Origin: Pseudomonadota bacterium | Lineage (GTDB): Bacteria; Desulfobacterota; RBG-13-43-22 | Assembly: GCA_043798385.1 (NCBI GenBank) | Contig: JAZDOU010000334.1 | Span: forward strand, 1 to 42,035 | Reading direction: 5' to 3' | Length of the DNA stretch: 42,035 bases | In this document: in pieces, positions 4,238 through 22,505 of the stretch | How positions within the stretch are numbered: position 1 is the stretch's first letter | Layout: the number at the start of each line of letters is the position of its first letter | Made by a program: the position numbers and the translations under genes | Notes under the pieces: generated by a model | What the model saw: the letters and a program-made list of their open reading frames with translations, nothing else | What the model was told of the DNA's origin: nothing | Database searches by the model: none

Positions 4238-4290
4238 AAAACACTCAATTTTATAAAGATTAAAGGCCGACGGCGACGAGGTTATTTTCT

Positions 4291-4827: not shown

Positions 4828-4867
4828 CTGTTGCCAAGGAAAGAAAGGACCCCCTTTTATTTTTTTC

Positions 4868-4906
4868 TTGACACCACCAAAAGACCACTTTACTATATTA
4901 CTATAT
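4868..4906 (+). promoter_or_regulatory. Candidate sigma-70 promoter with tandem TACTATAT octamers
   Basis: TTGACA 4868-4873, a 17-bp spacer, TACTAT 4891-4896. TACTATAT is repeated in tandem at 4891-4898 and 4899-4906. It lies upstream of the CDS at 4987. Confidence 0.45.
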
Positions 4907-4986
4907 AATTATTTACTTTTATAAAAAAGGTCTCGATAAAAGTCAACTTCTTAATTTAAACCTTATAAGGAGGCGCAGGACAGCTT

Positions 4987-5355
4987 ATGGAAGGAAAAAA
5001 ACCAACTTTGGAAGAATTACTTAAAACCATGGAAAAGATGAGCGGGGGAGACCCCAGACCCATGCGGGTCTTGTCTCAAATCAACCCGGAGTTCGTTTTC
5101 GAACAGGCCCGGGGCCGAAAGTTCGTCATGGATCTGCCGCTCATCCCACCGAAATACAAACATCTGATCATGATCGCCGTAGCCGCGGCGGTGGAAAGCA
5201 CCCTTTGTACCACTACCTTTATGAAAGGGGCCAAGATCGTGGGGGTAAGCAAGGAAGAAATCGCCGAGGCCATCATGGTGGCCCGACAGGCCAAGGGGGC
5301 GACGATTTTCGCCGCTTCCGTTGACGGTTTCGAGGAACTTTTAAAAGACACCTGA
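4987..5355 (+). CDS. Carboxymuconolactone decarboxylase (AhpD-like) family protein
   Basis: AAGGAGG SD. The PKYKHLIMIAVAAAV...C...A helix pattern is typical of CMD/AhpD-like proteins. Confidence 0.7.
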   Translation: MEGKKPTLEELLKTMEKMSGGDPRPMRVLSQINPEFVFEQARGRKFVMDLPLIPPKYKHLIMIAVAAAVESTLCTTTFMKGAKIVGVSKEEIAEAIMVARQAKGATIFAASVDGFEELLKDT

Positions 5356-5363
5356 AAATTACC

Positions 5364-5567
5364 ATGAGATGCATTGACCAGGGAACCATAAAAATCTTTC
5401 TCATCAAAGATGATTTTAAGGGTCGTTATTGGATCATCCAGGAAAGGAGCACCATAACTTCTACCGTTTCTCTGGAAGAAGCCGTAAGACTGTTAAAGAG
5501 CGAAACGTTTGATCTTATTGTTTCGGAACCGCATAACCTTTTTATCTTAGATTCCCCTTATAAGTAA
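5364..5567 (+). CDS. Small half-receiver-like protein (paralog of 22239..22505)
   Basis: 67 aa. Shares (I/V)KI..I..D(F/Y)...Y.I(I/V)Q......ST..L..AV..LK...FDLI(V/I)SEP.N with the ORF at 22239. Confidence 0.5.
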   Translation: MRCIDQGTIKIFLIKDDFKGRYWIIQERSTITSTVSLEEAVRLLKSETFDLIVSEPHNLFILDSPYK

Positions 5568-5587
5568 TTAATTAAGGAATTTGCGTT

Positions 5588-6331
5588 ATGAAACCGATCG
5601 AAAAACATGCCGTACAAATTTCGGAAGCCGTCCAACTGACCCATCCTCCTGTTGGCTTGAAGTTTTTAGAGTCCCTTGAACCCTGGAAAGATACACCGGT
5701 GGCCCAGGGCCATCGATTTTGCCAATTGATCATGCGGGCGCGGCAAGGGGAAGAATTAATCCTGACCCCGGAATCCATTTCCTGTCCGGGGGCAGCGGCA
5801 GCCTTGGGTTTTAAGCCCCTGCCCCCAAATCTGGAAGCCGGGCAGATGTTGAAAGCCTTTGGTATTTTTAAAGATCCCGGGAAAGGGGCCTTGACCATCA
5901 GGGCCATGCCCCGACTGGAACTGGGAAAGTTCAAAGGGATTATAGCCGGTCCTATCGAGCGCCTTTCCTTTGATCCGGACGTGGTTATTGTGGAAGATGA
6001 AGTGGAAAAACTGATGTGAATGGCCCTGGCCTATTTAAACACCCGCGGAGGAAGATTGGATTTCACCACCGCAATCCTTCAAGCCATGTGTGTGGATACG
6101 GCCGTCATCCCTTATATGCAAAACCGGTTGAACATGACTTTCGGTTGTTACGGCTGCCGGGATGCAACCGATATCCAACCCGGCGAAGCGGCCCTGGGAT
6201 TTCCGGCGGGAGATCTGGCTGATTTAACTGAACATCTGACTCATTTAGCCCAAAAGGCCATCCCCAATTGCCGGGCAAAAGCCATTTATCATTCCTTGCG
6301 AACCAGGCTGGACATACCTGCTGAAAAATAA
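5588..6331 (+). CDS. DUF169-family protein interrupted by one in-frame TGA (6017-6019)
   Basis: ORFs 5588..6019 and 6020..6331 are in the same frame and together give the length expected for DUF169 (about 245 aa). The junction reads ...VEDEVEKLM-TGA-MALAYLNTRGG. Confidence 0.55.
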
Positions 6332-6367
6332 TTGACTGTAAAAAGAATTTTATAAACTGGAAAAATC

Positions 6368-6904
6368 ATGAAACCGTCAAAAATAATTTTCCGGATCTTA
6401 GGATTTACTTGTGTCTTGCTTTCCTTGATGGTCATCTTTGGCTGCACCCGGATAAATACTCAGGAACGAATTCCCGATCGTTCCTGGCTGACCGATTTTG
6501 CACAGGCTCAGGAAGCGGCCCGGTCCAAAAACCTTCCTATTTTAGCCGCCTTTGTCGGTTCCGACTGGTGCCCCTGGTGCGAAAAATTGGAGGAGGAAAT
6601 CTTTTCCCAAAGGAATTTTATGGATTATGCCCAATCCCATTTCATCCTTTTTCAGGCGGATTTTCCGCGGCACAAAGCGCAGCCCCTTCCATTAAAAAAC
6701 CAAAATGAGGCCTTGTCCAAGACCTATGCCGTTTCCCGATTCCCTACCGTATTGATTATCGAACCTCAGGGTAAAGAAAAGGCCAGGACCGGCTTTCGCT
6801 ACGGCGGGGTAAATGCCTATATCGAGTACCTGAACGAACGGCTTAAAGACAACGGTTTGCTGCCAAACCACAAGGATCCCTTGCCGGTGTCTATTTCCCC
6901 TTGA
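6368..6904 (+). CDS. Thioredoxin-fold lipoprotein (CPWC active site)
   Basis: Lipobox LMVIFGC, WCPWC redox motif, thioredoxin_7/DUF255-like context (ILAAFVGSDWCPWC). Confidence 0.75.
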   Translation: MKPSKIIFRILGFTCVLLSLMVIFGCTRINTQERIPDRSWLTDFAQAQEAARSKNLPILAAFVGSDWCPWCEKLEEEIFSQRNFMDYAQSHFILFQADFPRHKAQPLPLKNQNEALSKTYAVSRFPTVLIIEPQGKEKARTGFRYGGVNAYIEYLNERLKDNGLLPNHKDPLPVSISP

Positions 6905-6931: not shown

Positions 6932-7267
6932 ATGAAGGATAAAAAAGAAATAAAACAGAAAATTTATGAAGGCCAAGCCTTCATTCTGAAGGCCTTGGGT
7001 CAGCCGAACCGGTTGCAAATTGTGGATCTTCTCAAGGACGGCGAGCGCTGCGTCTGTGAAATATTTTCGCCCATCCATCAGGAGCAGGCCAATATCTCCA
7101 AGCACCTTTCGATCCTGAAACAAGCGGGGATCCTGGAATCCCGAAAAAAGGGACTGCACACCTACTATCGCCTCAAAGACCAGGGGGTCCTGGACCTGCT
7201 GAAGGGGGTTTCCAGGATACTGAAAGATCAGGGACAGGAACAAAGAAAATGGATGGCTCAACTGTAA
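6932..7267 (+). CDS. arsR: ArsR/SmtB-family metalloregulator
   Basis: Winged helix-turn-helix LGQPNRLQIVDLL, metal(loid)-site motif ERCVCEI, and ISKHLSILKQAGIL recognition helix. Confidence 0.85.
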   Translation: MKDKKEIKQKIYEGQAFILKALGQPNRLQIVDLLKDGERCVCEIFSPIHQEQANISKHLSILKQAGILESRKKGLHTYYRLKDQGVLDLLKGVSRILKDQGQEQRKWMAQL

Positions 7268-7273
7268 TTTTTT

Positions 7274-7308
7274 TATTGATTAGCAACTCATTAGTTATAT
7301 AATCAATA
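7274..7308 (+). promoter_or_regulatory. Sigma-70-type promoter overlapped by a perfect 9-bp inverted repeat (putative ArsR-type operator)
   Basis: TATTGATTA 7274-7282 and TAATCAATA 7300-7308. TTGATT 7276-7281, 16 bp, TATAAT 7298-7303. It sits between arsR and the permease gene. Confidence 0.55.
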
Positions 7309-7335
7309 GGTAATTATTTAGGAAAGGACTATCCC

Positions 7336-8502
7336 ATGAAAGAACGGTATTATTTATTGCTGCTTATTGCTGGTTTTTTGGCGGCTTATTATGTCCCCTG
7401 GGACAGCGTCCTGATCCGTCAGTCCGGATTGGAAGCCTTCCTGATGCTCCAGGAATATGCCCGGGAACATGTACTGACCTGTCTCATACCGGCCCTGTTT
7501 ATTGCCGGGGCCATATCCGTTTTTGTCTCTCAGGCGGCTATCCTTAAATATTTTGGGGCCGCGGCCAATAAATTCCTGGCCTACAGCGTGGCCTCGGTTT
7601 CCGGGACCATCCTGGCCGTCTGCTCCTGCACGGTATTGCCTTTATTTGCCGGCATCTATACCCGGGGAGGCGGCATCGGGCCGGCCACAGCGTTTCTTTA
7701 TTCCGGGCCGGCCATTAATGTCCTGGCCATTGTCCTGACCGCCCGTATTTTGGGCTGGAAACTGGGACTGGCCCGGGCTCTGGGAGCGGTATGCTTTGCC
7801 TTTATCGTCGGACTGGCCATGCACTTTATCTATCTCAAGGAAGAGAAGGCCAGAATCGCCGGAACCCTCTATCTGCCCGAAGAAGAGGCCAAAACCCGCC
7901 CGCTCTGGAAGGAAGTCGTTTACATGGCCACCCTGGTGGGCATTTTGATCTTTGCCGCCTGGGGGAAACCGGCCCATCCGGTCGGTTTCTGGATGGCGGT
8001 TTGGGCGGTTAAATGGTATATTACGATCGGCTTTCTGATTCTGCTGGGTCTGGAGTTGTGGTCCTGGTTTGGCAAAGAGGAGATCACCGGTTGGGGACAA
8101 GCCACCTGGGGTTTTGCCAAACAAATTTTGCCCCTTCTTTTTGGAGGGGTGTTGGTGGCCGGGTTCCTGCTGGGCCGTCCTGGTCATGAGGCCTTGATCC
8201 CGGAACGATGGATCCAGTCGCTCGTTGGCGGCAATTCCCTGTGGGCCAATCTTTTTGCCGCTGTTTCCGGGGCGTTGATGTATTTCGCCACCCTGACCGA
8301 AGTGCCTATCCTTCAAGGCCTGTTAGGAAGCGGCATGGGTCAGGGACCGGCCCTGGCCTTGCTGCTGGCCGGACCGGCCTTGAGCCTGCCGAGTATGCTG
8401 GTCATTAGAAGCATTATCGGAACCCGGAAAATGCTGGTCTATTCAGGATTGGTGGTGATCTTATCTACCATCGCCGGGTTGATTTATGGGGCCATGGTAT
8501 AG
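7336..8502 (+). CDS. COG0701/DUF318 permease (ArsP-like family)
   Basis: 388 aa and polytopic. Cys pair AVCSCTVLPLF. Typical partner of the small redox-active-disulfide protein encoded next. Confidence 0.75.
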   Translation: MKERYYLLLLIAGFLAAYYVPWDSVLIRQSGLEAFLMLQEYAREHVLTCLIPALFIAGAISVFVSQAAILKYFGAAANKFLAYSVASVSGTILAVCSCTVLPLFAGIYTRGGGIGPATAFLYSGPAINVLAIVLTARILGWKLGLARALGAVCFAFIVGLAMHFIYLKEEKARIAGTLYLPEEEAKTRPLWKEVVYMATLVGILIFAAWGKPAHPVGFWMAVWAVKWYITIGFLILLGLELWSWFGKEEITGWGQATWGFAKQILPLLFGGVLVAGFLLGRPGHEALIPERWIQSLVGGNSLWANLFAAVSGALMYFATLTEVPILQGLLGSGMGQGPALALLLAGPALSLPSMLVIRSIIGTRKMLVYSGLVVILSTIAGLIYGAMV

Positions 8503-8556
8503 GCTATTATTAGACAACGATGCATTTAGATTCAAACTTAAAGAGGAGAGTATTAC

Positions 8557-8790
8557 ATGGAAATTAAAATTCTGGGACCCGGGTGTCCCAAGTGCCTGCA
8601 AACTGAAAAAATCGTAAAAGAGGCCGTTGCCGAAAGCGGGCTCCCCGCCCAAGTTGAAAAGGTCACCAATATACTGGATATCGCCAAATATGGAGTATTC
8701 GGGACCCCGGCGGTCGTGGTGGACGGAGAGGTCAAGTCCGTGGGAAAAATCCCGGCTAAAGAAGATGTCAAGAAGTGGATCGAAAAATAA
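8557..8790 (+). CDS. Thioredoxin-like redox-active disulfide protein 2 family
   Basis: 77 aa. MEIKILGPGCPKC...FGTPAVVVDGE is the canonical pattern of this family. Confidence 0.85.
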   Translation: MEIKILGPGCPKCLQTEKIVKEAVAESGLPAQVEKVTNILDIAKYGVFGTPAVVVDGEVKSVGKIPAKEDVKKWIEK

Positions 8791-8794
8791 GCAG

Positions 8795-8914
8795 CCCAAC
8801 CCGGACCAGCCGGAACCAAGAGGTGGATATATAAACCATAATTGGTCCGGGTCCAGGGCGTGTTCTTTAATAAATTCTATCCATTTTGCGTAGATTTTTA
8901 TTCTTTAGTTACTA
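8795..8914 (+). repeat. 131-bp-family intergenic repeat, divergent short copy (copy D)
   Basis: Shares CCCAACCCGGACCAGCCGGAACCA...TGGTCCGGGT...GTTCTTTAATAAATTCT.TCCATTTTGCGTAGA.TTTTATTCTT.AGT.ACTA with the copies at 13611, 14650 and 24625. Confidence 0.85.
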
Positions 8915-8929
8915 AGGAGGAAATCGGTT

Positions 8930-9322
8930 ATGGCTAATGATTGTTGCGCCCCGTCAGGAAACATTATGCTCTTGCCCTGTTCCGGTGGTTCCAATGTCGG
9001 TCAACTGGCCAACCAGGCGGCCGTGGAACTGACTCAGGAAAGTTTTGGGAAAATGTACTGCCTTGCCGGCATCGGGGCCCATTTGGGCGGTTTTGTTCAG
9101 TCCGCTAAAGATGTCCCGGAGGTAATCGTTATTGATGGTTGTGAAGTCGGTTGTGGCAAAGAGATTATGGAACATGCCCAAGTCCCTCTTAAAAATTACC
9201 TGGTCCTGACCGGTCTGGGAATTGAAAAAAACAAAAATTTCAACCTACAGCGTCAGGACATTGACCAAGTTAAAAAGGCCGTAAAAGCCTCTCGTCAAAA
9301 AGCAGAAAAGGCCCCGGCATGA
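8930..9322 (+). CDS. DGC-domain putative zinc-binding protein
   Basis: AAGGAGG SD. LPCSGGSNVGQLAN ... VIDGCEVGCG matches the DGC-family signature. Confidence 0.7.
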   Translation: MANDCCAPSGNIMLLPCSGGSNVGQLANQAAVELTQESFGKMYCLAGIGAHLGGFVQSAKDVPEVIVIDGCEVGCGKEIMEHAQVPLKNYLVLTGLGIEKNKNFNLQRQDIDQVKKAVKASRQKAEKAPA

Positions 9323-9493
9323 CCGTGGCCGCTGTCTCTGGTGCAGGAGGTTATCCTGCCCTTTAAGGAAAAGCCTTCCGGAGCATCCTGTTGCGGATAG
9401 TTATTTTTTTAATTACGGTTCGGCCTATCCCCCTCCCGTTACCCGGGTTGCCGGGGTGCAAGGGATTGGCAGGCCGAGGGAGATATTTTTTTC

Positions 9494-9539
9494 TTGACAG
9501 AGGTTTTAATAAACTACATTATCATGAAGTAATATAGTC
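9494..9539 (+). promoter_or_regulatory. Candidate sigma-70 promoter plus AGTAATATAGT motif
   Basis: TTTTTTTCTTGACA (TTGACA at 9494-9499), CATTAT at 17-bp spacing. AGTAATATAGT 9529-9539 is the reverse complement of ACTATATTACT found at 2741 and 4892. It is preceded by a GC-rich hairpin and T-run (about 9422-9492) that probably terminates the upstream operon. Confidence 0.4.
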
Positions 9540-9559
9540 ATTTAAAGGGACAAAAAATA

Positions 9560-10057
9560 ATGGAATCCGAGGATATTACCCAAGTCAAAGTAGGCACTTT
9601 TCGGGTCGGGATTATGGGCCTCAAGGAAGTGATGGACGATCTGGCTTCCTCCCTGGCCCAGGCTACGGATGAAGAAATGGCCCGGGAATTAGTTTCCCGC
9701 CTCGCTAAGAAAAATTATATTTCAGAAAAGACCAGGGCCGAATACGGGCGGGCCTTTTTAAACGAGTTCAAGAAATATCTCGGCAGGCCGGTCACCGAAA
9801 GCGAACCGGCCGGGCTGACCATCCGGGTCCTGGGCCAGGGCTGTCCCAATTGTCATGCCCTTAGCCAAAGGATTATGGAGGTCCTAAGCGAATTAAACCT
9901 GCCTGCCGATTTCGAGCATGTTACGGATATTAAGGAAATCGCCCGGTACGGGGTTATGCAGAGCCCGGCCCTGGTTGTGAACAAAAAAATAGTGACCCGG
10001 GGGACGGTTCCCGGCAAGGCCCAACTGATCGAGTGGTTTAAAAAGGCCGCCGGATAA
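9560..10057 (+). CDS. Thioredoxin-like redox-active disulfide protein with N-terminal extension
   Basis: The C-terminal half (RVLGQGCPNCH...MQSPALVVN) resembles the 8557 protein. The roughly 85-aa N-terminal domain is unassigned. Confidence 0.7.
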   Translation: MESEDITQVKVGTFRVGIMGLKEVMDDLASSLAQATDEEMARELVSRLAKKNYISEKTRAEYGRAFLNEFKKYLGRPVTESEPAGLTIRVLGQGCPNCHALSQRIMEVLSELNLPADFEHVTDIKEIARYGVMQSPALVVNKKIVTRGTVPGKAQLIEWFKKAAG

Positions 10058-10059
10058 AA

Positions 10060-10305
10060 ATGGGCCAGCCGATTGTTTTGACCTTTACCGAGGAAGAAAT
10101 TCAGACCATCGTGCGCCTCGACCTGGATGCCGATCAGGCCGGGGCGTTACATTTCATTCGCGATACTATGGGCAGGAAATTAAAGGCCCTCAGCCGCCCC
10201 CATTGTGTCCCGGTCTTTGAGGTCACTTATAGCCCCAGGCAGAAAGAGGCCTTTCAGCCAACAGGAAGGAATAAGGAAAGATGCCGACCAAAGGACCAGT
10301 CATGA
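10060..10305 (+). CDS. Hypothetical protein
   Basis: 81-aa ORF, tightly packed between its neighbours (ATGA overlap with the next gene). No family recognised. Confidence 0.4.
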   Translation: MGQPIVLTFTEEEIQTIVRLDLDADQAGALHFIRDTMGRKLKALSRPHCVPVFEVTYSPRQKEAFQPTGRNKERCRPKDQS

Positions 10306-10568
10306 AGATTCCTCACTTACTTTTTTCGATTACTTTAATCCTTTTTTTGCTGTTGGGCGGCACCGTTTCTTTGGCCCAGGACAAGAAGGCCGTCTCCCCT
10401 GCTCCCACCGGACCTCAGCCGGGGACCCTCTCAGATCAAAATAAGCCGCCAGACCGGGATTGTGCCCAAGCTTCTACCCCGGTCCCCCCGGAAAAAAAGC
10501 AGACAGATCCTGAATCGTTAACACCCCCGCCGATAAAAATTCAGGAAGGCACCAATGCCGAGGGTTGA
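10302..10568 (+). CDS. Secreted proline-rich hypothetical protein
   Basis: ORF trimmed to MKIPHLLFSITLILFLLLGGTVSLA (signal peptide), followed by low-complexity Pro-rich sequence. Confidence 0.45.
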   Translation: MKIPHLLFSITLILFLLLGGTVSLAQDKKAVSPAPTGPQPGTLSDQNKPPDRDCAQASTPVPPEKKQTDPESLTPPPIKIQEGTNAEG

Positions 10569-10633
10569 TCCTGAAAAAAGGTCTCCGGGCGGAGACGATC
10601 GTTTAACAAAAGGAATAAAAGGAGGAAAACACT

Positions 10634-11725
10634 ATGTCCGAAGGGACTCCTAAAAAACTTTCCTTTCTGGACCGTTTCCTGACCCTGTGGATCTTTTTAG
10701 CCATGCTGATCGGTGTGGGCTCCGGCTATCTTTTTCCCAAGGTGGTCGGATTCTGGAATCTCTTCCAGGTTGACACCACCAATATCCCCATTGCCATCGG
10801 CCTGATCCTGATGATGTACCCTCCTCTGGCCAAGGTCAAATATGAAGAACTTGGAGAAGTCTTTAAAAATTACCGGGTCCTGACCCTCTCCCTGATCCAG
10901 AACTGGGTCATCGGCCCGATCCTGATGTTCTTCCTGGCCATCCTCTTTCTGGCCGGCTACCCCGAATACATGGTCGGCCTGATCATGATCGGCCTGGCCC
11001 GTTGCATCGCCATGGTCATCGTCTGGAACGAGCTGGCCTCCGGAGACACCGAATACTGTGCCGGTCTGGTGGCCTTCAATTCCATTTTCCAGGTCCTTTT
11101 CTTCTCCCTGTATGCCTATATTTTCATCACTATTCTGCCCGGCTGGTTCGGCCTGAAAGGCACAGTGGTGGATATTTCCATCGGTCAGATTGCCAAGAGT
11201 GTTTTTGTTTATCTGGGTATTCCTTTTATCGCCGGGGTCATTACCCGTTTCACCCTGATCAAGATCAAGGACAAGACCTGGTATCATGAAAAATTCATTC
11301 CCAAGATCAGCCCCATCACCCTGATCGCCCTGCTCTTCACCATCATCGTCATGTTTTCTCTGAAGGGGGAATTTATTGTTCAACTGCCATTGGATGTGAT
11401 ACGCATCGCCATCCCGCTGACCATTTATTTTGTCATCATGTTCTTTATCTCGTTTTATATGTCGATGAAAGTCAAGGCGACTTACGAACAATCCACCACC
11501 CTTTCCTTTACGGCCGCCTCCAATAATTTCGAACTGGCCATTGCCGTGGCGATAGCCGTCTTCGGCATCAACTCCGGGGCGGCCTTTGCGGCCGTCATCG
11601 GCCCTCTGGTCGAAGTTCCGGTCCTGATCAGCCTGGTCAATGTGGCCTTGTGGTTCAAACGAAAATACTTCCCTTTTGCTGTAGAGACGCCTACCGGCAT
11701 CTGTCATGTCACCTGTAAACCGTAA
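10634..11725 (+). CDS. acr3: ACR3-family arsenite efflux transporter
   Basis: [25 protein letters not shown]-terminus and the conserved [13 protein letters not shown] Cys motif are diagnostic of ACR3. Confidence 0.9.
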
Positions 11726-11729
11726 AAGA

Positions 11730-11771
11730 AAGGTTCAAGGTGTAAGGTATAAGGCTCAGGGTAAAGGAATT
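11730..11771 (+). repeat. Six tandem heptamers AAGGTNN
   Basis: AAGGTTC AAGGTGT AAGGTAT AAGGCTC AGGGTAA AGGAATT, located directly between acr3 and the next CDS. Confidence 0.7.
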
Positions 11772-11790
11772 AGAATGAAGAGAATGGCTC

Positions 11791-12315
11791 ATGTTACTAA
11801 ACAGCTACAGTAAAGAAATCTTTCGGCCCGAATGCAACCCCGGTTTTCAATCTCTGCACTGTATCGCCCGCTTGGATCAGGATATCAGGGAAGTCCTTCC
11901 TTATCTCAATACCGTTCTTGGTGGAGATGAGTACTATCAGGATCCCCCGGCAGTGACCTTCAGGCCTCAGGGCAAACTGATCACCGTTCATCCCGATAAG
12001 ATTGCCATTAATGCCCTCCGTGATGAGCAAGAGGCCGACCGGATCCTGGAGTGGCTCAAGAGAGAAATTAATGAGACCTGGGAAAAGAGGGCTATAATCA
12101 AACCGTCCTATGAAAGCCTGCCCCGTCCGCAGGTCTTTGAGGTCCTGAAGATGCTACCAAAAACCAACTGCCGTGAATGCGGTCAACCGACCTGTATGGT
12201 CTTTGCCGTGGCCGTTACCGAAGGGGTGAAAGGAGTGGAAGACTGCCCGCCGCTGAACAACGAGAGCAGGGAAAAACTACAGGGATATTTGAACCGCTTT
12301 CATTTGGATTTTTGA
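11791..12315 (+). CDS. Fe-S cluster domain protein (CdhE/Rnf-type N-terminal 4Fe-4S motif near the C-terminus)
   Basis: LPKTNCRECGQPTCMVFAVAV...CPP matches the putative Fe-S cluster (PF04060-like) signature. The rest is unassigned. Confidence 0.6.
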   Translation: MLLNSYSKEIFRPECNPGFQSLHCIARLDQDIREVLPYLNTVLGGDEYYQDPPAVTFRPQGKLITVHPDKIAINALRDEQEADRILEWLKREINETWEKRAIIKPSYESLPRPQVFEVLKMLPKTNCRECGQPTCMVFAVAVTEGVKGVEDCPPLNNESREKLQGYLNRFHLDF

Positions 12316-12319
12316 AGGA

Positions 12320-13534
12320 ATGGATAGAACCATAAACAAAAAAAGATGGCTCCTTTATTTGGTTTTAGCAACCATCTTAAGCGTCCTGTTGGTTTCTCCC
12401 TATCTTTTTGGGGAAGGGAAAAAAGAGGATATCCATTCTCTGAAGGAACTGATCGAACGCTATGATTCCGCCCGGTGCCAGGAGTGTCATCCGAAGCAAT
12501 ACGCCCAATGGGAGAAGTCCCATCATGCCCGTCCCTTAATGGGTATGGATGACTGGATCTTCATGTCTAAATACCTCAAGGAAGGGGTCCTGGCCGTGAA
12601 AGACCCTAAGAAGGCCACCAAGGCCAATTTCCCTTGTGCCAAATGCCATCTTCCTCAATTAAACCAAGCTACCGATGCAGTTGCTGCCGAACTGGCGGCA
12701 GCCGTCCTTCGTGATGATAAAAAACTCGTCAGACAATTAAACATCGGCTGCCTGGTCTGTCATCAGGATAAGGCCGTGATCCACCACAAACCGGAACCGG
12801 GCGTCTTATACGGGAAGAGGTTCCGGCGCCGCTTTGATGATCACAAAGGGGATGTAAAAAAGGTGCGGGAAAGCACTTTTATGAAATCGGCCCTCTTTTG
12901 CGGCCAATGCCACGGTTTAGGCCCCAATCTGGAATCTGAGATTCCGACCCAATGCGCCACCCTCTACGGCAGTTATCTCCATGCCTATATCCCATCGGGC
13001 GGATCTCAAACGTGTCAGGACTGCCACATGCCCAAGCGGGATCACACCTGCCTGCCCAATTTTAACAATCGAGAAGAAACAGCGGCCCGATTAAAAAATG
13101 CCCTGCCCATGGAAGTACAAACCCTGGGTTATATCTTTCAGATAGAAGAAGAAAAATACCAGCCTATGGCCGTTGTCAAGACCCGAATTACCAACAAAGC
13201 CGGGCATCGTATCCCTGATGGGTGACCGACCAGAACCCGGGTGGTCCTGGAAGTGACTGCATACCTAACGAACGGACAGAAGTTTTTTCAGACAGAAAAA
13301 ATTTACATGCCCCAGGCGACCGACAGCCGCAGCCCGCTCATGGCCCTTGGACCGGATAAAAAACTCGGCCTGATCCGGGATACCAGTATCCAGCCTTTTG
13401 CTCCCAAAGAAGAGACCTTTGAGATACCGGTGCCCAAGGGTGCCATCTGGTTGGATATAAACCTGAGTTACCAACCCCGGCCTGGAAATATTTATCCTAT
13501 CCATAGTATTAAGAAAAAAGTAACCATGAATTAA
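12320..13534 (+). CDS. Pentahaem c-type cytochrome, reading frame continued through an in-frame TGA (13223-13225)
   Basis: Signal anchor. Five CXXCH motifs (CQECH, CAKCH, CLVCH, CGQCH, CQDCH). ORFs 12320..13225 and 13241..13534 are in the same frame. The junction NKAGHRIPDG-TGA-PTRTRVVLEV lies inside what looks like one conserved GHxxPxG....R..LEV motif. Confidence 0.6.
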
Positions 13535-13779: not shown

Positions 13780-14640
13780 TTATGAAAGACTTTTAGCGAG
13801 GGTATCCAGTATCTTTTGGTTTAAACCGAGGGCCGCCCCGTCCAACCCCAGACTCAGACCCAGCAACTGGGGATAAAGGAGAGAAGGCACTCCCTGATTT
13901 TCGTCCGCTTCTTTTCCCATTATTTCCCCGACCCGGTCAAACTGCATTTGACAATGGGTACAGGCCACACAGAGCACATCAGCTCCGGATTCTTTGGCAC
14001 TTTCTATTTTCTTGGTGGTCAGTTCCAGGGACAAATCATTATTTTTACCCCACAAGGACTCCCCGCAACATTGGGTCCTGAGCGGATAATCCACACTGAC
14101 GGCACCAGTGACTTCAACCAGCCTCTCAAATTTACTCGGATTAAAGGGGTTATCAAATTGAACCACATCGCGGGGGCGTAAGATATGACAACCATAATGG
14201 GCGGCAACCTTGAGGTTCTGAAACGGCCGGACATTTTTCCCCAAGATACTTTCCGGAACGATATCCTCAGAAAGGACATTTAAAAGGTGCTTTATTTCCA
14301 CCTGCTCCGGATAGCGCAGACCTTCACCTTTTAACCATTCATTGACTTCCTTCAAAAGAAGCTCATTTTTTCTGAGTAAATGATCCGCATAGCGTAAGGT
14401 CCCGTAACAACACTGGCAAAGACATAACAAGGGCAATCCCTTTTCGCCGCTTATGGCAATATTTCGGGCCGAGGAGAAGATAAAGGCCCTGAAGTCCAGA
14501 AAACGGATCGGGTATCCACAACAATTAAATTCCAGATCCTCTAATTCAAGACCCAAGGTATTGAGCACCAGGCGGCTGGCCATTTCATACTGGGGGACGT
14601 AATAAGGGACCTTGCATCCTGGGAATAAGCTGTATTTCAT
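13780..14640 (-). CDS. HdrB-like CCG-domain protein (heterodisulfide reductase subunit B family)
   Basis: ORF trimmed to MKYSLFPGCK. Two CCG-type motifs (NCCGYP, TQCCGES) plus CxxC-rich segments. GGGAG SD supplied by the end of repeat copy B. Confidence 0.8.
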   Translation of the reverse strand: MKYSLFPGCKVPYYVPQYEMASRLVLNTLGLELEDLEFNCCGYPIRFLDFRAFIFSSARNIAISGEKGLPLLCLCQCCYGTLRYADHLLRKNELLLKEVNEWLKGEGLRYPEQVEIKHLLNVLSEDIVPESILGKNVRPFQNLKVAAHYGCHILRPRDVVQFDNPFNPSKFERLVEVTGAVSVDYPLRTQCCGESLWGKNNDLSLELTTKKIESAKESGADVLCVACTHCQMQFDRVGEIMGKEADENQGVPSLLYPQLLGLSLGLDGAALGLNQKILDTLAKSLS

Positions 14641-14649
14641 GATTTTTCT

Positions 14650-14780
14650 CCCAACCCGGACCAGCCGGAACCAAAATTGGATATACAAAATGTGTTAAAA
14701 CCCTTGGTTGGTCCGGGTCAACGGCTTGTTCTTTAATAAATTCTTTCCATTTTGCGTAGAATTTTATTCTTAAGTCACTA
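14650..14780 (+). repeat. 131-bp intergenic repeat, copy B
   Basis: See copy A. Its last 11 nt overlap the stop and the last three codons of the upstream minus-strand gene (14770..). Confidence 0.9.
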
Positions 14781-16464
14781 AATCCCCTTCGCCGGGAGTC
14801 CGGCTTTTCCCCTGCTGAAAAGCCGTATTTTTAAGTTCAAACAGGATATCGGTTACCCGGATCCCCTGGGGGCAGGATTCCTGACAATTATAACAACCCA
14901 GGCAGTCCCAGACCATCCTGGCTCCCAAGACGTTATCCTGAAGTCCGTATTTTAAACTTTGCATAATAAGATGCGGCAGCAATCCAAGTTTTTCCAGAGG
15001 ATTTTTATAATTAACCACCACCGGGCAGGCGTTGGTACAGGTCATACAGGTAAAACAGGCATAAAAAGTGCTGGCCTGTAAGGAAAGACCGACACTCTGG
15101 GTAAATTTTTTCCCGGAAGGCGGTAGTTGGATAACGGCATTTTTTCTATCCCAATCAAATTTCTCCACAAAGGCATCTCGTGTCCGGGTGAAAAGTTCAG
15201 GGCATCCCCGATGGCTCAAATCCTTATCCATAACAAACCACTGGTCCTGAAGAACGATCCCCACCGGACAGACGGTGCTGCAACGGTAACAATCGGTGCA
15301 GATGGATTCCCCTTCCCGGATCATCGGAAGAGTTGAGAGGGACGACCCGTTTTTATTGTTCAGGGTAGTTAAAGCCTTCAATTTTTCCGAAGGCAGGATT
15401 TGGATATTGGGAATGGATTGGTAAACAGGTCCCACGGAACAATGGATACTGCAGGTAGCGCAGTGGGTACAGGCATCCAGCTCAATAGCCTGAACCGTGG
15501 CTATATTGGCGGGAGAGGCCTTGGGTCGATCCATCACACCGTTGATCAGAAGCACCAGAGGGCTGGTCAGGATATGGAAAAATTTGGTAAACGGCAGCAA
15601 GGCCAGCCCGAGAAAACAGACCAGAAAATGGAAATAAAGAAGGGACTCCCGGATGGTTTTCTGACTCAAGATAAGGGCCGATGGGGTGATTGCCTTGGCC
15701 AGCCCGTAAGACACAAAAGCCGCCGTCGGCCTGGAATGACAGGAGGCACAATTGAGGACATGGACCTCCCGGCCTTTGGTCAAGACAGCGGCCTCCGTGG
15801 ATGGGGTCTTGGGGAAGACCACGGCAAAGTCTCTGGCCCAATAGGCCCTCAGGGCATCGGCTTCCTGTTCGTCGGATATGGAAGAATATTCGGAAACCAT
15901 TTCCTCATACCGCTGGTGGGAAACGATCTTGGTGGCCTCTAAAAAAAACCCGGAAAGGGCGATCAAGGCCAGAATCACCAGGGCATAGATATCCGCACTC
16001 CCCGTGGTCAGACGCATGATCCGGTTGGTGATCCGGCGATAGGCGGCGATGGCCAGGCCTAACAACATCATGGCCCCGAACAGATTCCTCAGAAAAAGAA
16101 AAGGATTGAGGGTCGAGAAGTATTCGGGAAAGAGCTTCTGGCTGACATAGCGATCCAGGGCATGCATAAGGAGCAGCAGGATAAACCCGTAGGCGATACA
16201 AAAATGCATGAACCAGCGGACAAACCCTTCCCGGGTTATCTGCTTCTGAAGGAAGACCTCCAAAAACCAGATCTTAATGAGATGAAACAGTTTTAGGCTG
16301 AAAAAGACGGAGAAAACTCCTTTGAGGGCCTCTAAAAATCGTTTAGGAGCGGATATTCTTTCGGAGGGATCACCGGTCCACCGTCGAAACCACCTTAAAA
16401 TCTTGACCCCTGTCCCGATTCCAAAAATAATCAAAGCGGCATATAAACTGATTTTAAAAAACAT
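14770..16464 (-). CDS. Membrane NarI/DsrM/HdrE-like domain fused to HdrC-like double 4Fe-4S ferredoxin domains
   Basis: The N-terminal ~300 aa have five or six TM helices with conserved His residues. The C-terminal half carries four CxxCxxCxxxCP-type motifs (CTHCATCSIHC, CTDCYRCSTVCP, CFTCMTCTNACP, CLGCYNCQESCP). Confidence 0.75.
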   Translation of the reverse strand: MFFKISLYAALIIFGIGTGVKILRWFRRWTGDPSERISAPKRFLEALKGVFSVFFSLKLFHLIKIWFLEVFLQKQITREGFVRWFMHFCIAYGFILLLLMHALDRYVSQKLFPEYFSTLNPFLFLRNLFGAMMLLGLAIAAYRRITNRIMRLTTGSADIYALVILALIALSGFFLEATKIVSHQRYEEMVSEYSSISDEQEADALRAYWARDFAVVFPKTPSTEAAVLTKGREVHVLNCASCHSRPTAAFVSYGLAKAITPSALILSQKTIRESLLYFHFLVCFLGLALLPFTKFFHILTSPLVLLINGVMDRPKASPANIATVQAIELDACTHCATCSIHCSVGPVYQSIPNIQILPSEKLKALTTLNNKNGSSLSTLPMIREGESICTDCYRCSTVCPVGIVLQDQWFVMDKDLSHRGCPELFTRTRDAFVEKFDWDRKNAVIQLPPSGKKFTQSVGLSLQASTFYACFTCMTCTNACPVVVNYKNPLEKLGLLPHLIMQSLKYGLQDNVLGARMVWDCLGCYNCQESCPQGIRVTDILFELKNTAFQQGKSRTPGEGDLVT

Positions 16465-16937: not shown

Positions 16938-18260
16938 ATGAAGTCCACACCGGCCTTTTTAAAAATTATCCTGGATAGTATCACCGAGGGGGTCTTTACA
17001 ATCAATAAAGATTGGATGATTACCTCCTTCAATCAAGCGGCCGAAAAAATAACCGGATTTCCAAGAGAAAAGGCTATCGGCAAAAAATGTTTTGAGGTCT
17101 TTCAGGCCGATATCTGTCAGGAGGCCTGTGCCCTGGCCCGGACCTTGAAAACTGGAAAAAATGTGGTGGATCTGCCGGTCAATATTTTAGATGCCCATGG
17201 AAAGGTTATTCCCATCGGCGTAACGACTGCCGTCCTGAAAGACAGCCAGGGCCGGATGATGGGCGGGGTCGAGACCTTTAGGGATTTGAGCACTATCGAG
17301 GCCCTGCGCAAAGAAATCACCCAAAAGTATACCTTAAACGACATTATCAGCAAGAGTGATATCCTACAGAAAATTTTTAATAATCTTCCTGACATCGCCC
17401 AAAGCGACAGCACTGTTCTGATTCAGGGTCCCAGCGGTTCCGGCAAGGAACTGCTCGCCAAAGCCATTCACGAACTGAGTCCGAGGAAGGGAAAACCCTT
17501 TGTGGCCATCAATTGCAGCGCTTTGCCGGAGACCCTGCTTGAATCTGAGCTTTTCGGCTATGTCCGCGGGGCTTTTACGGATGCCAAAAAGGATAAACCC
17601 GGAAAATTTTCCCAAGCCGATTCGGGAACGTTGTTTTTAGACGAAATCGGGGATCTGCCCCTGAAGGTACAAGCCAAGTTATTACGAGTCCTTCAGGAAA
17701 AGACCTATGAACCTCTGGGTTCTAATGTCAGTAAACCGGTCAAGGCCCGATTGATCTCGGCCACCAATAAAAATCTCAAAGGTCTGGTCAAGGGCGGCCT
17801 ATTCAGAGATGACCTGTATTACCGGCTGAAAGTGATCCAAATCGATCTACCGTCCTTAAGAGAACGCCGCGAAGACATCCCTTTGTTGATCGAACATTTT
17901 CTGAACAAATTCAACCTTAGGACAGGCAAAAAAATCAATCAGTTATCTCCGAAGGCCCTCCATATTTTAATGAATTATGAGTACCCGGGAAATATCCGGG
18001 AGTTGGAAAATATCATTGAGCACGCCTTTGTTCTCTGCCATGGTTCGACCATCCAACTGGCCCATCTGCCGCCAGAACTGCCCAAGGAAACCAGGGAGAT
18101 AGACGATCTCCAACCTCCTTTTGAAAATAAATTAAAAGACCGGGAACGGGAGCTCATTCAACAGACCCTGGAAAAATATCACGGCAACCGCACCCTGACC
18201 GCCAAGGAATTGGGGATCCATCCCACCACCCTGTGGCGAAAACTAAAACACCCCGCTTAA
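16938..18260 (+). CDS. Sigma-54-dependent Fis-family transcriptional activator with N-terminal PAS domain
   Basis: PAS domain (ITEGVFTINKDW), AAA+ Walker A GPSGSGKE, ESELFGY...GAFTDA loop, C-terminal Fis helix-turn-helix (LTAKELGIHPTTLWRKL). Confidence 0.9.
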   Translation: MKSTPAFLKIILDSITEGVFTINKDWMITSFNQAAEKITGFPREKAIGKKCFEVFQADICQEACALARTLKTGKNVVDLPVNILDAHGKVIPIGVTTAVLKDSQGRMMGGVETFRDLSTIEALRKEITQKYTLNDIISKSDILQKIFNNLPDIAQSDSTVLIQGPSGSGKELLAKAIHELSPRKGKPFVAINCSALPETLLESELFGYVRGAFTDAKKDKPGKFSQADSGTLFLDEIGDLPLKVQAKLLRVLQEKTYEPLGSNVSKPVKARLISATNKNLKGLVKGGLFRDDLYYRLKVIQIDLPSLRERREDIPLLIEHFLNKFNLRTGKKINQLSPKALHILMNYEYPGNIRELENIIEHAFVLCHGSTIQLAHLPPELPKETREIDDLQPPFENKLKDRERELIQQTLEKYHGNRTLTAKELGIHPTTLWRKLKHPA

Positions 18261-19020: not shown

Positions 19021-19383
19021 ATGAAACTGGCCATTAGTTCTAAAGGAAAAAGTCTGGATAGCGAAATCGATCCCCGTTTCGGCCGAGCAGCCTTTTTTAT
19101 CCTGATCGATCCGGAAACAATGAATTTTGAGATTATAGAAAATAAACAGAACCTGCAATTACCCCAAGGCGCCGGTATCCAGACCGCCCAAACGGTTGTC
19201 GAACGTGGAGCTACAATAGTTCTAACCGGCAACTGCGGCCCCAAAGCGTTTCAGGTCTTGCAGGCCACCGGAATTAAAGTGGCGGTGGGGATATCCGGAA
19301 CGATTAAAGATGCCGTCATCCAGTTTAAACAAGGCAAAATTAATTATGTTCAGGCACCTAATGTTGAAGGCCATTGGGCTTGA
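19021..19383 (+). CDS. NifX/NifB-like FeMo-cofactor-biosynthesis-family domain protein
   Basis: MKLAISSKG...DPRFGRAAFFILID...GAGIQTAQTVVERGATIVLTGNCGPKA is the classical pattern of this family. Confidence 0.85.
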   Translation: MKLAISSKGKSLDSEIDPRFGRAAFFILIDPETMNFEIIENKQNLQLPQGAGIQTAQTVVERGATIVLTGNCGPKAFQVLQATGIKVAVGISGTIKDAVIQFKQGKINYVQAPNVEGHWA

Positions 19384-19503
19384 AAAATTTCGGATTTCGG
19401 CCTCCGGCCCGGAGGGGCCCACGCCCCGGGGGGATTTCGGATTTCGGAATTAAGGACACGGTAAAGCTAAAATTTTAAAGTTCAAAAAAAAACAGGAGGA
19501 ATT

Positions 19504-19746
19504 ATGCCAAGAAGAGATGGTACCGGCCCGGCCGGAAAAGGTTCTGGTGGAGGTTTTGGATCAGGAAGAGGCCTGGGCGGAGGGGGAGGACTTGGATCAG
19601 GAAGAGGCCTGGGCGGAGGGGCCGGCATGGGAGCCGGCGGGAATTGTCTCTGCCCTAAATGCGGCAATAAAAGCTCCCATGGCCGGGGAGTACCCTGCAA
19701 CACCCTGAAGTGTTCCAAATGCGGCACGACCATGGTTAGGGAATAG
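19504..19746 (+). CDS. DUF5320-family protein with Gly-rich repeat and C-terminal CxxC...CxxC zinc-ribbon-like motif
   Basis: AGGAGG SD. MPRRDGTGPAGKG N-terminus typical of DUF5320. CPKCG...CSKCG. Confidence 0.75.
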   Translation: MPRRDGTGPAGKGSGGGFGSGRGLGGGGGLGSGRGLGGGAGMGAGGNCLCPKCGNKSSHGRGVPCNTLKCSKCGTTMVRE

Positions 19747-19756
19747 AGATTAAATA

Positions 19757-19909
19757 GTTTCCATCCGGAAATTCAAATTTCCGGATGGAAATACCTGGAT
19801 TCTGACTCGAAGCTCTGGCCAGAAACCCCTTTTTCAAAGGGTTTCTGGCCATGGAGACAAATCGACCACGGTATGTTCTCATCCGGAAAGATCATTTCCG
19901 GATGAGAAC
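19757..19909 (-). repeat. Mosaic hairpin array (right copy, inverted relative to 16483-16680)
   Basis: Hairpins at 19758-19791, 19817-19850 and 19875-19909 correspond to hairpins 5, 2 and 1 of the left array. Confidence 0.85.
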
Positions 19910-20107
19910 TAAATAGAAAGGAATATCTTCCCGGCAAAAACCGGATGAGCCCCGCCCATTGGGGGGCCACCTCTCACTCCGCCATGGGTGGGGCTCAAAC
20001 TCCTTGCTCTCTGTGAACTCTGTGAGAGATAAAAGGGTTTTTGAGAAAAATGGTTTTTTTAAAGATAAATTTGAAAAAATAAAAAATTCTTGAAAGGAGG
20101 TTCAGTT

Positions 20108-21358
20108 ATGAACAGCAGTTGTGCACACGATTCCAATGCGGGGAAGGAACCCCAACGGGCGGAGGAGGATGCCGCCATCAATAGATCATTATCCCGTATA
20201 AAAAATAAATTATTGGTTATGAGCGGAAAGGGAGGGGTCGGGAAAAGCAGTCTGGCCGTAAACCTAGCCGCCGGATTATCATTAAAAGGCTACAAAGTTG
20301 GCCTTATGGATGTCGATCTCCACGGACCGAGCATCCCCCGCATGCTTGGTATCCACAACCAGACACCCCTTCAACACAAGGATGGGATTTACCCCATTCC
20401 CGTCAATGACCTCTTAAAGGTGATTTCTATTGAAGTGCTGATGCCTGACAAGGATTCACCGACTATCTGGCGCGGTCCTTTGAAGATCGGGGTCATTCGG
20501 CAATTTATAGCCGATGTGATCTGGGGAGACCTGGATTTCCTGATTATTGATTCCCCCCCGGGGACCGGAGATGAACCCCTGACCGTGGCCCAGACCATTC
20601 CCGGTGCCCAAGCGGTCATCGTCACCACACCTCAGGAAATCTCCTTGTCCGACGTGCGGAAGTCTATCAATTTTTGTCGACAGGTCGACATGCCCATTAT
20701 GGGATTGGTGGAAAACATGAGCGGCTACATCTGCCCCCATTGCGGTCAGGAATCGGCCATCTTTAAAAAAGACGGAGGAAAACGAACCGCCGTCTCCATG
20801 AAGGTCCCTTTCCTGGGAAGTATTCCTTTTGACATTCAACTCATGGAAAAAGGGGATGAAGGACAGGCCTATCTATTTAATAACCCGGCACCGGCGGTTA
20901 AAGAGGCCCTGGATGGGATTATTGAAAAAATAATAACCACCGCCGATCAAAATAAAAAAGAAATTATAAAACCGATAACGGAGGTCTTACCCATAATGAA
21001 CGCAATCAATGTAACGTCTGATAGTTTAAAGATCGCCATCCCCATGGCCGAGGGGATGCTTTGCAATCACTTCGGTCATTGCGAGCAATTCGCCTTGATT
21101 GACTTACAGGGAAAAAACATTATCCAAAAAGTGATGGTCACTCCACCTCCCCATGAACCCGGTCTCCTGCCCCGCTGGCTGGGTGAAAAAGGAGTCAATC
21201 TCATCATTGCCGGCGGCATGGGCCAAAGGGCTGTCAGCCTTTTTAATGAACGGGGGATCAAGGTCTTGACCGGGGCACCGCAACTGGCTCCGGAAGCATT
21301 GATCGCCCAGTATGTCAATCAAACCCTGATTACCGGAGACAATGTCTGTGATCATTAG
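20108..21358 (+). CDS. Mrp/NBP35 (ApbC-like) P-loop ATPase fused to a C-terminal NifX-like domain
   Basis: ORF trimmed to the ATG after AAAGGAGG. VMSGKGGVGKSS deviant Walker A, CPHCG motif. The C-terminal ~110 aa (IAIPMAEGMLCNHFGHCEQFALID...IIAGGMG) form a NifX/NifB-like domain. Confidence 0.85.
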   Translation: MNSSCAHDSNAGKEPQRAEEDAAINRSLSRIKNKLLVMSGKGGVGKSSLAVNLAAGLSLKGYKVGLMDVDLHGPSIPRMLGIHNQTPLQHKDGIYPIPVNDLLKVISIEVLMPDKDSPTIWRGPLKIGVIRQFIADVIWGDLDFLIIDSPPGTGDEPLTVAQTIPGAQAVIVTTPQEISLSDVRKSINFCRQVDMPIMGLVENMSGYICPHCGQESAIFKKDGGKRTAVSMKVPFLGSIPFDIQLMEKGDEGQAYLFNNPAPAVKEALDGIIEKIITTADQNKKEIIKPITEVLPIMNAINVTSDSLKIAIPMAEGMLCNHFGHCEQFALIDLQGKNIIQKVMVTPPPHEPGLLPRWLGEKGVNLIIAGGMGQRAVSLFNERGIKVLTGAPQLAPEALIAQYVNQTLITGDNVCDH

Positions 21359-22196: not shown

Positions 22197-22238
22197 CCTG
22201 AAACGAAGGCGGCTGATCCTTTTTAGAAAGAAGGGGCT

Positions 22239-22505
22239 ATGAAAAACCCGGTAAAAATTATGCACATTGACGCTGATTATCAGGTTCATTATATCATTGT
22301 TCAGAATGGATCATTAATCCATTCAACGATACCCTTACAGACAGCGGTCAAATTCCTTAAGACCATGGAGTTTGATTTAATTATATCCGAACCCCAAAAT
22401 AAAGCCTTAATGAAAAAAAATGAAAAAAATAGTACTCACCAAAAAACGCTTCCCAAACCTATCGTCTCATGTGAGAGCAATCCAGCTCCCATTCATCCGG
22501 AATAG
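22239..22505 (+). CDS. Small half-receiver-like protein (paralog of 5364..5567)
   Basis: 88 aa with an SD-like GAAGGGG. Conserved block ...AVKFLKTMEFDLIISEPQN shared with the 5364 ORF. Confidence 0.5.
   Translation: MKNPVKIMHIDADYQVHYIIVQNGSLIHSTIPLQTAVKFLKTMEFDLIISEPQNKALMKKNEKNSTHQKTLPKPIVSCESNPAPIHPE

Follow-up and report, generated by a model that had tools for sequence, protein, structure and literature searches.

A cytochrome gene with an in-frame TGA

We examined a stretch of 42,035 nucleotides (hereafter the window), contig JAZDOU010000334.1 of GenBank assembly GCA_043798385.1, deposited as a Pseudomonadota bacterium and placed by GTDB in Desulfobacterota; RBG-13-43-22, and focused on a multihaem c-type cytochrome gene at positions 12320-13534 that is interrupted by a single TGA. 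Two open reading frames (ORFs) lie at this locus, 12320..13225 and 13241..13534, both on the forward strand. The first encodes 301 residues and is terminated by the TGA at 13223-13225. The two share one frame (13241-12320 = 921 = 3 x 307), in which this TGA is the sole break between 12320 and 13534, and the frame beyond it stays open for 102 codons, until the TAA at 13532-13534. Translated across the junction, the gene reads AGHRIPDG-TGA-PTRTRVVLEV. The read-through protein contains five CXXCH motifs, at C53, C106, C144, C194 and C232, and has a calculated mass of 46.0 kDa, compared with 34.3 kDa for the truncated product. In all these respects the locus is as a sequence-only reading had described it: two ORFs in one frame split only by the TGA, about 100 open codons downstream, the same junction, a pentahaem cytochrome, and products of about 45 and 34 kDa.

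The closest characterized protein is MccSep (also ExtKL, GSU2937-2936) of Geobacter sulfurreducens PCA, a selenocysteine (Sec)-containing cytochrome (Mihara et al., bioRxiv 10.1101/2025.11.18.688581). The features of the window gene, with their MccSep counterparts, are as follows.

12320..13534, +: complete coding sequence, very probably for a pentahaem cytochrome c selenoprotein of the MccSep/ExtKL family; 404 codons, ATG at 12320, predicted Sec codon 302, TAA at 13532-13534
12320..12412, +: probable Sec-type (here in the sense of the export pathway) signal peptide, residues 1-31; basic n-region KKR, hydrophobic core at about residues 9-25, then LFG/EG
12476..12490, +: haem 1 motif CQECH (C53-H57); invariant in alignment A3
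12635..12649, +: haem 2 motif CAKCH (C106-H110); H110 is the counterpart of H122, which in G. sulfurreducens MccSep ligates the catalytic haem on its proximal side
12749..12763, +: haem 3 motif CLVCH (C144-H148), from translation and alignment
12899..12913, +: haem 4 motif CGQCH (C194-H198), from translation and alignment
12953..12955, +: Cys212 codon, counterpart of C239, the distal Cys ligand of haem 2; PTQCATLYG aligned with PTQCCTSYA; invariant in 68 sequences
13013..13027, +: haem 5 motif CQDCH (C232-H236), from translation and alignment
13223..13225, +: UGA, predicted Sec codon, residue 302 (GHRIPDG-U-PT); aligns with the catalytic U325 and is TGA in 78/78 orthologous loci
13361..13363, +: Lys348 codon, counterpart of K372, which supports Sec catalysis in MccSep; GPDKKLG aligned with GPYEKSG

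All five CXXCH motifs are invariant among 68 aligned sequences. The basic stretch and hydrophobic core of the N-terminus are typical of an export signal, with the 15-residue Kyte-Doolittle mean peaking at 2.85 over residues 11-25, and we infer from this segment that the cytochrome is probably exported to the periplasm. The exact 301-residue product has no identical record in the protein collection, where the closest entry, P0001, is 90% identical.

We are confident that 12320-13534 is one gene, that it encodes a probably periplasmic pentahaem c-type cytochrome of about 46 kDa belonging to the MccSep/ExtKL selenoprotein family, and that its UGA is a genuine Sec codon, at which this organism presumably inserts Sec. 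The evidence that carries the codon assignment comes from orthologs. We fetched 80 related loci from different species (47-74% identity), all of them metagenome-assembled genomes of Desulfobacterota, Nitrospirota and one bin labelled Candidatus Brocadiia; the Desulfobacterota bins include ones labelled Desulfomonile or Desulfomonilaceae, Syntrophobacteraceae, Desulfarculaceae and Desulfatiglandaceae. The motif around the codon could be located in 78 of these loci. In every one of the 78 the orthologous codon is TGA, followed by 80-146 open in-frame codons, and the two parts of the gene lie in one frame with the TGA alone between them. Because the same codon is TGA in all 78 loci, its occurrence is far beyond chance. 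The best database homologs tell the same story from the side of annotation: 118 of 120 end at ...AGHR[I/F/L]PDG, so gene callers stop at the same codon across organisms. One relative, P0003 (406 aa, 61% identical over its whole length), is instead continuous and carries Cys at the Sec site (GHRIPDGCP), and the 102 codons past the TGA are conserved as protein, with 61% identity to P0003 throughout. The sequence-only reading had weighed a selenoprotein against a very recent pseudogene and had set Cys in orthologs, favouring Sec, against Trp, favouring a lesion, or a downstream segment missing or degenerate in relatives; Cys in P0003, TGA in the 78 orthologs, alignment with U325 and the long open frames after each TGA all favour the former, and the pseudogene option has fallen.

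Automatic gene calling splits the locus exactly as it was first annotated in Geobacter, as two genes, extK and extL, the first stopping at TGA 13223-13225 and the second giving a small protein from GTG 13241, and the database entries are divided in the same way. Some of the truncated 34-kDa product is probably made, given that UGA is never read as Sec with full efficiency. Nevertheless, two separate genes are a very improbable reading here. In G. sulfurreducens, an antibody to the downstream part shows one band of about 49 kDa, and mass spectrometry finds a Sec peptide across the junction (10.1101/2025.11.18.688581); moreover, the two parts are always in the same frame and separated by the TGA alone, and the Cys-type homolog P0003 is one continuous protein. 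The idea that the TGA is a mutated or missequenced TGG (Trp) or TGC/TGT (Cys) codon in a dead or truncated gene has next to no probability, and on the sequence comparison we regard it as refuted. A lone in-frame stop is the typical look of a fresh lesion, and the window holds a real one in its DUF169 gene (below). Here, however, the TGA sits at the exact codon in 78/78 orthologous loci of different species with a long open frame after each, 118 of the 120 closest proteins are cut off by gene callers at the identical residue, the site is the proven Sec of a crystallized homolog, and the 102 downstream codons are conserved at the protein level.

Two other genes of the window contain an in-frame TGA and help to calibrate the case.

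30680-31285, +: Sec-type peroxiredoxin (AhpC/TSA + 1-cysPrx_C); TGA 30821-30823 at the peroxidatic position, FTFV-U-PTE
5588-6331, +: split DUF169 (PF02596) gene; TGA 6017-6019, with the halves on Pfam model positions 2-136 and 139-208

The AhpC/TSA domain of the peroxiredoxin continues through TGA 30821-30823, and a hairpin starts inside this UGA (about 30822-30844, loop GUUA, -16.6 kcal/mol, z = -3.1). A Sec-peroxiredoxin in the same window indicates that the host has the Sec machinery, in line with the sequence-only reading, which held that the host decodes UGA as Sec. That reading had also counted two clearer Sec genes in the window; the peroxiredoxin stands as one of them, and our scan of all in-frame TGAs in the window turned up no second, with only the peroxiredoxin qualifying as a Sec gene besides the cytochrome. 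We rejected TGA 6017-6019 of the DUF169 gene as a Sec codon: it aligns with Trp in 119 of 120 homologs (EKLM-W-[MIV]ALAY), whose proteins are continuous, and it is a TGG-to-TGA lesion or an assembly error. About a dozen further genes in the window end normally at TGA with no open continuation, so the code is not reassigned. The cytochrome TGA can thus serve as a positive control, a true Sec codon in a multihaem cytochrome recognized from sequence alone, and the DUF169 TGA, which replaces a near-invariant Trp, as its matched negative control in the same window.

Kinship with the MccSep/ExtKL family

The read-through protein matches the NCBIfam model NF040886, 'multiheme c-type cytochrome (seleno)protein ExtKL', at 431.7 bits (E 2.4e-129). 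This is an equivalog model of 423 positions with a cut-off of 250 bits, and residues 16-403 of the window protein fall on model positions 7-422; we found no family-level difference from it. Two relatives with 57-65% identity, P0017 and P0116, already bear the NCBI name of the NF040886 family. Among structures, residues 39-373 match 9WT8/9WT9 (E 1.7e-63); the PDB entries matched are those of wild-type MccSep (9WT8/9WTA/9WTB) and of its U325A mutant (9WT9/9WTC). The alignment runs through the C-terminal domain as far as residue 373 and places the window TGA on residue 325 exactly (GHSIPDG-U-PT in MccSep, GHRIPDG-TGA-PT here).

MccSep of G. sulfurreducens is a periplasmic homotetramer from which residues 1-25 are cleaved, with one Se and five c-haems (five Fe) per subunit and with VEMTNHAGHSIPDGUPTPNR as the peptide seen by mass spectrometry; it reduces polysulfide and selenite, and growth on elemental sulfur requires it (10.1101/2025.11.18.688581). 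The window protein resembles it in its five CXXCH motifs, in a Sec at the identical position of the GHxIPDG-U-PT loop, in the conserved His and Cys ligands of haem 2 and the catalytic Lys, in the C-terminal domain past the Sec and the N-terminal signal-like segment, and in being annotated automatically as two ORFs. It differs in lacking a counterpart of Arg83, in three indels within the segment between haem 1 and haem 2, in having Ala in place of C240, the non-conserved residue next to C239, and in lying among ars-type genes rather than in an extHIJKLMNOPQS cluster. Arg83 was the only sequence-level mark of MccSep/ExtKL membership that we looked for and did not find.

This selenoprotein family is already known, not new, because it has the NF040886 model, five PDB entries, a biochemical and genetic characterization, a listing in a review and a prediction made before 2018. 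The gsu2937-2936 product was predicted in silico as a Sec-containing multihaem cytochrome before 2018 (PMC5877670), and a 2026 review of prokaryotic selenoproteins lists the ExtKL family (PMC13188914). The preprint gives 637 homologs, 394 of them recovered via UGA read-through, together with crystal structures, kinetics and genetics (10.1101/2025.11.18.688581). These records overturn the suggestion of the sequence-only reading that the gene might be a new selenoprotein; that reading knew of no described multihaem cytochrome containing Sec. With its family, Sec, structure and chemistry already described, the gene contributes little new biology. Two small additions are a covariation-supported hairpin in about 75 orthologs, whose 3' arm lies beyond the 30-nt fold of the preprint, and a linkage with ars and thioredoxin/CcdA genes that leads to testable hypotheses on the substrate and reductant of MccSep-type enzymes. 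The gene thus leaves a modest question about what the ars-linked clade does, and the hairpin refines the likely position of the selenocysteine insertion (SECIS) element.

More distant kin are also recognizable. The pentahaem cytochrome c552 of Thermochromatium tepidum (PDB 5ZE8) gives a weak C-terminal sequence match (E 9.4e-08, residues 223-371); it is a distant relative with a different function, and the PDB sequence search showed no equivalent of the Sec/Cys site in it. Small pentahaem cytochromes of cable bacteria (the 'PHC' family) structurally resemble ExtKL and T. tepidum cytochrome c552 (PMC11976967).

The catalytic residues of MccSep have direct counterparts in the window protein: H110 corresponds to H122, C212 to C239, U302 to U325 and K348 to K372, and all four are invariant in the alignment of 68 relatives. 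In MccSep, His122 and Cys239 are the axial ligands of haem 2. The attack on polysulfide or selenite is made by the Sec, and the resulting adduct moves to Cys239 and is reduced via the haem chain. The U325A, U325C and C239H variants are nearly inactive, and R83A and K372A are impaired. The electron donor is called unidentified, and the family-wide status of R83 is not stated (10.1101/2025.11.18.688581). By homology with the crystallized enzyme, electrons would enter the window protein at haem 1 and travel along the haem chain to haem 2, whose axial ligands would be His110 and Cys212. Sec302 would sit on a loop of a C-terminal immunoglobulin-like domain that reaches haem 2, attack an S-S or Se-O substrate (polysulfide or selenite) and pass the adduct to Cys212, after which the haem would reduce the Se-S(e)-S intermediate. 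Polysulfide and selenite are thus the substrates suggested by analogy. The physiological substrate may still differ from that of the Geobacter enzyme, because the gene closes a cluster that starts with ArsR and includes ACR3.

A conserved hairpin downstream of the UGA

To place the recoding signal, we aligned 75 distinct orthologous segments without gaps, each running from 6 nt upstream to 48 nt downstream of the TGA (alignment A2). Two hairpins come into consideration.

13241..13260, +: conserved hairpin, probable SECIS; stem GUGGUC 13241-13246 / GACUGC 13255-13260, loop CUGGAAGU at 13247-13254
13230..13250, +: hairpin CCAG-a-ACC-cgggt-GGT-c-CTGG, noticed in the sequence-only reading; present, not conserved, and in competition with the conserved hairpin for 13241-13250

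The conserved hairpin has a 6-bp stem and an 8-nt loop, CUGGAnGU, and starts 15 nt past the UGA, spanning 18-37 nt after its U; loop residue G13249, 26 nt past that U, is invariant. Its helix is paired in 99.1% of 450 cells across the 75 orthologs. Compensatory changes occur in 10 cells, in several lineages, at pairs 13243/13258 and 13246/13255, which join synonymous third-codon positions of Val/Thr and Val/Val codons; the double changes that keep pairing are G-C to U-A or C-G and C-G to U-A or G-C. None of 500 shuffles reached the observed values, and sliding the partner strand abolished the signal. RNAalifold recovered the helix 13241-13246/13255-13260 independently. Entropy at third codon positions is 1.3-1.9 bit in the flanks but only 0.35-0.65 bit in the stem, and it drops to 0.0 at G13249, indicating selection on the RNA beyond selection on the protein. 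Together, the pairing, the covariation, the RNAalifold result and the suppressed synonymous variation likely place the SECIS at 13241-13260. Decoding of the UGA would then most likely proceed through SelB bound to this hairpin.

The hairpin of the sequence-only reading does exist (-8.0 kcal/mol when evaluated alone), but it did not stand up as the SECIS: 73.7% of its cells are paired, the same as in shuffles, and its pair 13233/13247 is broken in 60 of the 75 sequences. We ranked a third helix, GACC (of UGACC)/GGUC at 13224-13227/13243-13246, below the hairpin at 13241-13260. Although 97% of its cells are paired, the UGA and Pro codons keep its 5' strand constant and leave no room for covariation, and its pairing is lost exactly where the conserved hairpin shows compensation. 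This third helix resembles the SECIS of the window's peroxiredoxin. The nine bases TGACCGACC do occur at both 13223 and 30821, an identity that the sequence-only reading had pointed out; they encode Sec-Pro-Thr each time, and the match therefore reflects the same three codons, not a shared signal.

The preprint folded the UGA and 30 nt only (10.1101/2025.11.18.688581). The conserved hairpin ends 37 nt past the U of the UGA, outside that segment, which would cut off its 3' arm. Like the SECIS of E. coli fdhF, it is a short stem-loop within the coding sequence, at a fixed distance past the UGA and with conserved G/U in its apical loop. It differs from the fdhF element in its spacer, which is 15 nt compared with about 11 nt in the minimal fdhF SECIS, and a bulged U is not evident here.

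Several observations weigh against the assignment of the gene as an MccSep-type selenoprotein with this recoding signal. Identity to G. sulfurreducens MccSep is low, at 37.8% over 360 columns. The substrate-orienting Arg83 of MccSep sits in a two-residue insertion that is absent here (GTG-RT-AATF compared with GMD--DWIF). The gene context is ars-type and not the extHIJKLMNOPQS context of Geobacter, which does not itself define the family. Within the window we identified no selA, selB, selC or selD and found no tRNA genes, which leaves the peroxiredoxin gene as the basis for taking the host to decode Sec. The conserved hairpin has a calculated energy of -5.6 kcal/mol, and in this sequence the non-conserved one is 2.4 kcal/mol more stable. 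The 53-nt stretch past the TGA folds no better than shuffled sequence (z = +0.84). Finally, no Rfam family matches the whole window at gathering thresholds or 13180-13320 at E <= 10, a result that is uninformative either way.

The single-sequence minimum-energy fold past the UGA is neither of the two hairpins (z +0.84, +0.65). At 12530-12560 of the window (residues ~71-81), the sequence of the clade is HHARPLMG[LM]DDWIF, which places two acidic residues opposite the GTGRTAATF of Geobacter. As judged from this alignment, the anion-binding site of the window enzyme may differ from that of Geobacter, or the alignment may be uncertain in this indel-rich segment.

Gene neighbourhood and other genes of the window

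A series of ars-type genes on one strand extends from 6932 to 13534 and closes with the cytochrome gene. The genes upstream of it are as follows.

6932-7267, +: ArsR, Pfam match
7336-8502, +: ArsP_1-type permease, Pfam match
8930-9322, +: DGC-domain protein, Pfam match
9560-10057, +: MTH895/ArsE thioredoxin-like protein, Pfam match
10281-10568, +: small ORF of the same-strand series
10634-11725, +: ACR3 arsenite efflux pump, 462 bits against a cut-off of 282.8
11791..12315, +: 174-aa cytoplasmic protein with a C-terminal PF04060 'putative Fe-S cluster' domain and without a signal peptide, Pfam and NCBIfam matches

The stop of the 11791-12315 gene lies 4 nt before the ATG of the cytochrome gene, and with only these 4 nt between stop and start the two genes are likely translationally coupled. 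The PF04060 domain of the 174-aa protein is like the N-termini of RnfB and of the CODH/ACS gamma subunit, and no domain is assigned to the protein's own N-terminal part.

To count neighbours, we clustered every flanking ORF, without bias, across 81 loci, namely the window and the 80 loci fetched. No neighbour of this MccSep clade is conserved more often than the 174-aa Fe-S protein, which lies directly upstream or downstream of the cytochrome gene in 42 of the 81 loci. At least one of the window's ars-type genes lies within 6 kb in 55 of 78 related loci, with the order shuffled and the linkage kept. The other recurrent neighbours are:

DsbD_TM/CcdA-like membrane protein: 34-36/81 loci
exported thioredoxin: 34-36/81 loci
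ACR3: 30-33 loci (33/81 by clustering)
ArsE-like thioredoxin: 24-26 loci (26/81 by clustering)
ArsR: 22 of 78 related loci
DGC-domain protein: 20/81 loci
ArsC, low-molecular-weight-phosphatase type: 13-14/81 loci
ArsP_1 permease: 13/81 loci
rhodanese: 11-12/81 loci

The genes for the exported thioredoxin and the CcdA-like protein are frequently paired beside the cytochrome gene, often directly upstream of it (order thioredoxin-CcdA-cytochrome), for example in L029 (4913-5981), L031 (4925-5948), L056/L057/L059 (~4820-5950) and L073 (4940-5972). Such a pair could supply periplasmic thiol reductant, either for the Sec/Cys site or for haem attachment. Our search within the window found no match to the thioredoxin/CcdA, ArsC or rhodanese neighbours. 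In several relatives the rhodanese is a membrane-anchored single-domain protein encoded directly downstream of the cytochrome gene (L063, 7337-7714; L068-L072, ~7200-7720; L041, 9498-9989), and it recalls the ExtH rhodanese of the Geobacter cluster. That ext cluster encodes the ExtI porin, the ExtH rhodanese, the ExtM/N/S cytochromes and ExtO/P, a Rieske protein and a cytochrome b (PMC5877670).

The linkage of this clade to ars genes is real as a genomic pattern; the searchable literature yielded no link between the MccSep/ExtKL family and ars operons. One possibility, which we consider unlikely though well short of negligible, is that the same selenoprotein fold does a different job here, serving arsenic or metalloid resistance rather than sulfur respiration through the periplasmic reduction of selenite, of arsenic-sulfur species (thioarsenates) or of arsenate. 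The position of the gene at the end of a one-strand cluster of ArsR, ArsP_1 permease, DGC protein, ArsE-like thioredoxin, ACR3 and Fe-S protein is consistent with such a job, as are the occurrence of at least one of these genes near the cytochrome in the 55 related loci and the lack of conservation of Arg83. The Geobacter enzyme also reduces selenite, and arsenate is absent from the compounds tested on it; it is inactive on arsenite (10.1101/2025.11.18.688581). Nevertheless, the argument is purely one of guilt by association. The catalytic set of Sec, Cys, His and Lys is identical to that of the polysulfide reductase, rhodanese genes, which point to sulfur transfer, accompany the cytochrome in 11-12 related loci as in Geobacter, and a polysulfide reductase could sit in ars islands merely since arsenic and sulfide chemistry co-occur. 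The Nitrospirota relatives L077-L080, moreover, carry none of the window's six ars-type genes, although L080 has a match to the low-molecular-weight phosphatase-type ArsC adjoining its cytochrome gene.

A more specific form of this proposal seems to us more doubtful still. In it, the Sec-haem enzyme of the Desulfobacterota clade would be a dedicated part of ArsR-regulated arsenic/metalloid resistance operons, acting on thioarsenate, arsenate or selenite and linked with ACR3, ArsC, the ArsE-like thioredoxin, the small Fe-S protein and, in many relatives, the thioredoxin/CcdA pair. If true, this would extend the ars system by a new periplasmic arm and give the MccSep fold a second role in physiology.

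Further genes of the window lie on either side of this series. Upstream of ArsR, on the forward strand, are:

3248-4237, +: SBF-family transporter, a distant relative of ACR3
4291-4827, +: FMN reductase
4987-5355, +: CMD/AhpD-like protein
6368-6904, +: exported DsbH-like thioredoxin

Together with the broken DUF169 gene among them and the ars genes, the genes at 3248-6904 have the look of an island for metalloid or redox stress. Downstream of the cytochrome gene, the window continues with:

13780-14688, -: HdrB-like CCG-domain protein, convergent with the cytochrome gene
14770-16464, -: 564-aa membrane protein with NarI-like and HdrC/QmoC-like Fe-S parts, convergent with the cytochrome gene
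16938-18260, +: sigma-54 activator, after the Hdr-like pair
19021-23882, +: cluster of Nitro_FeMo-Co-domain proteins, three ParA/MinD-type Fe-S P-loop NTPases and a NifU-like protein
32718-38732, +: cluster in which two MTHFR-like genes flank a 1032-aa HdrA-like flavoprotein, with an MTHFR C-terminal-domain protein

None of the 80 related loci has the Hdr-like pair beside its cytochrome gene. The cluster at 32718-38732 has what we take to be a MetFV-Hdr arrangement, typical of Wood-Ljungdahl anaerobes.

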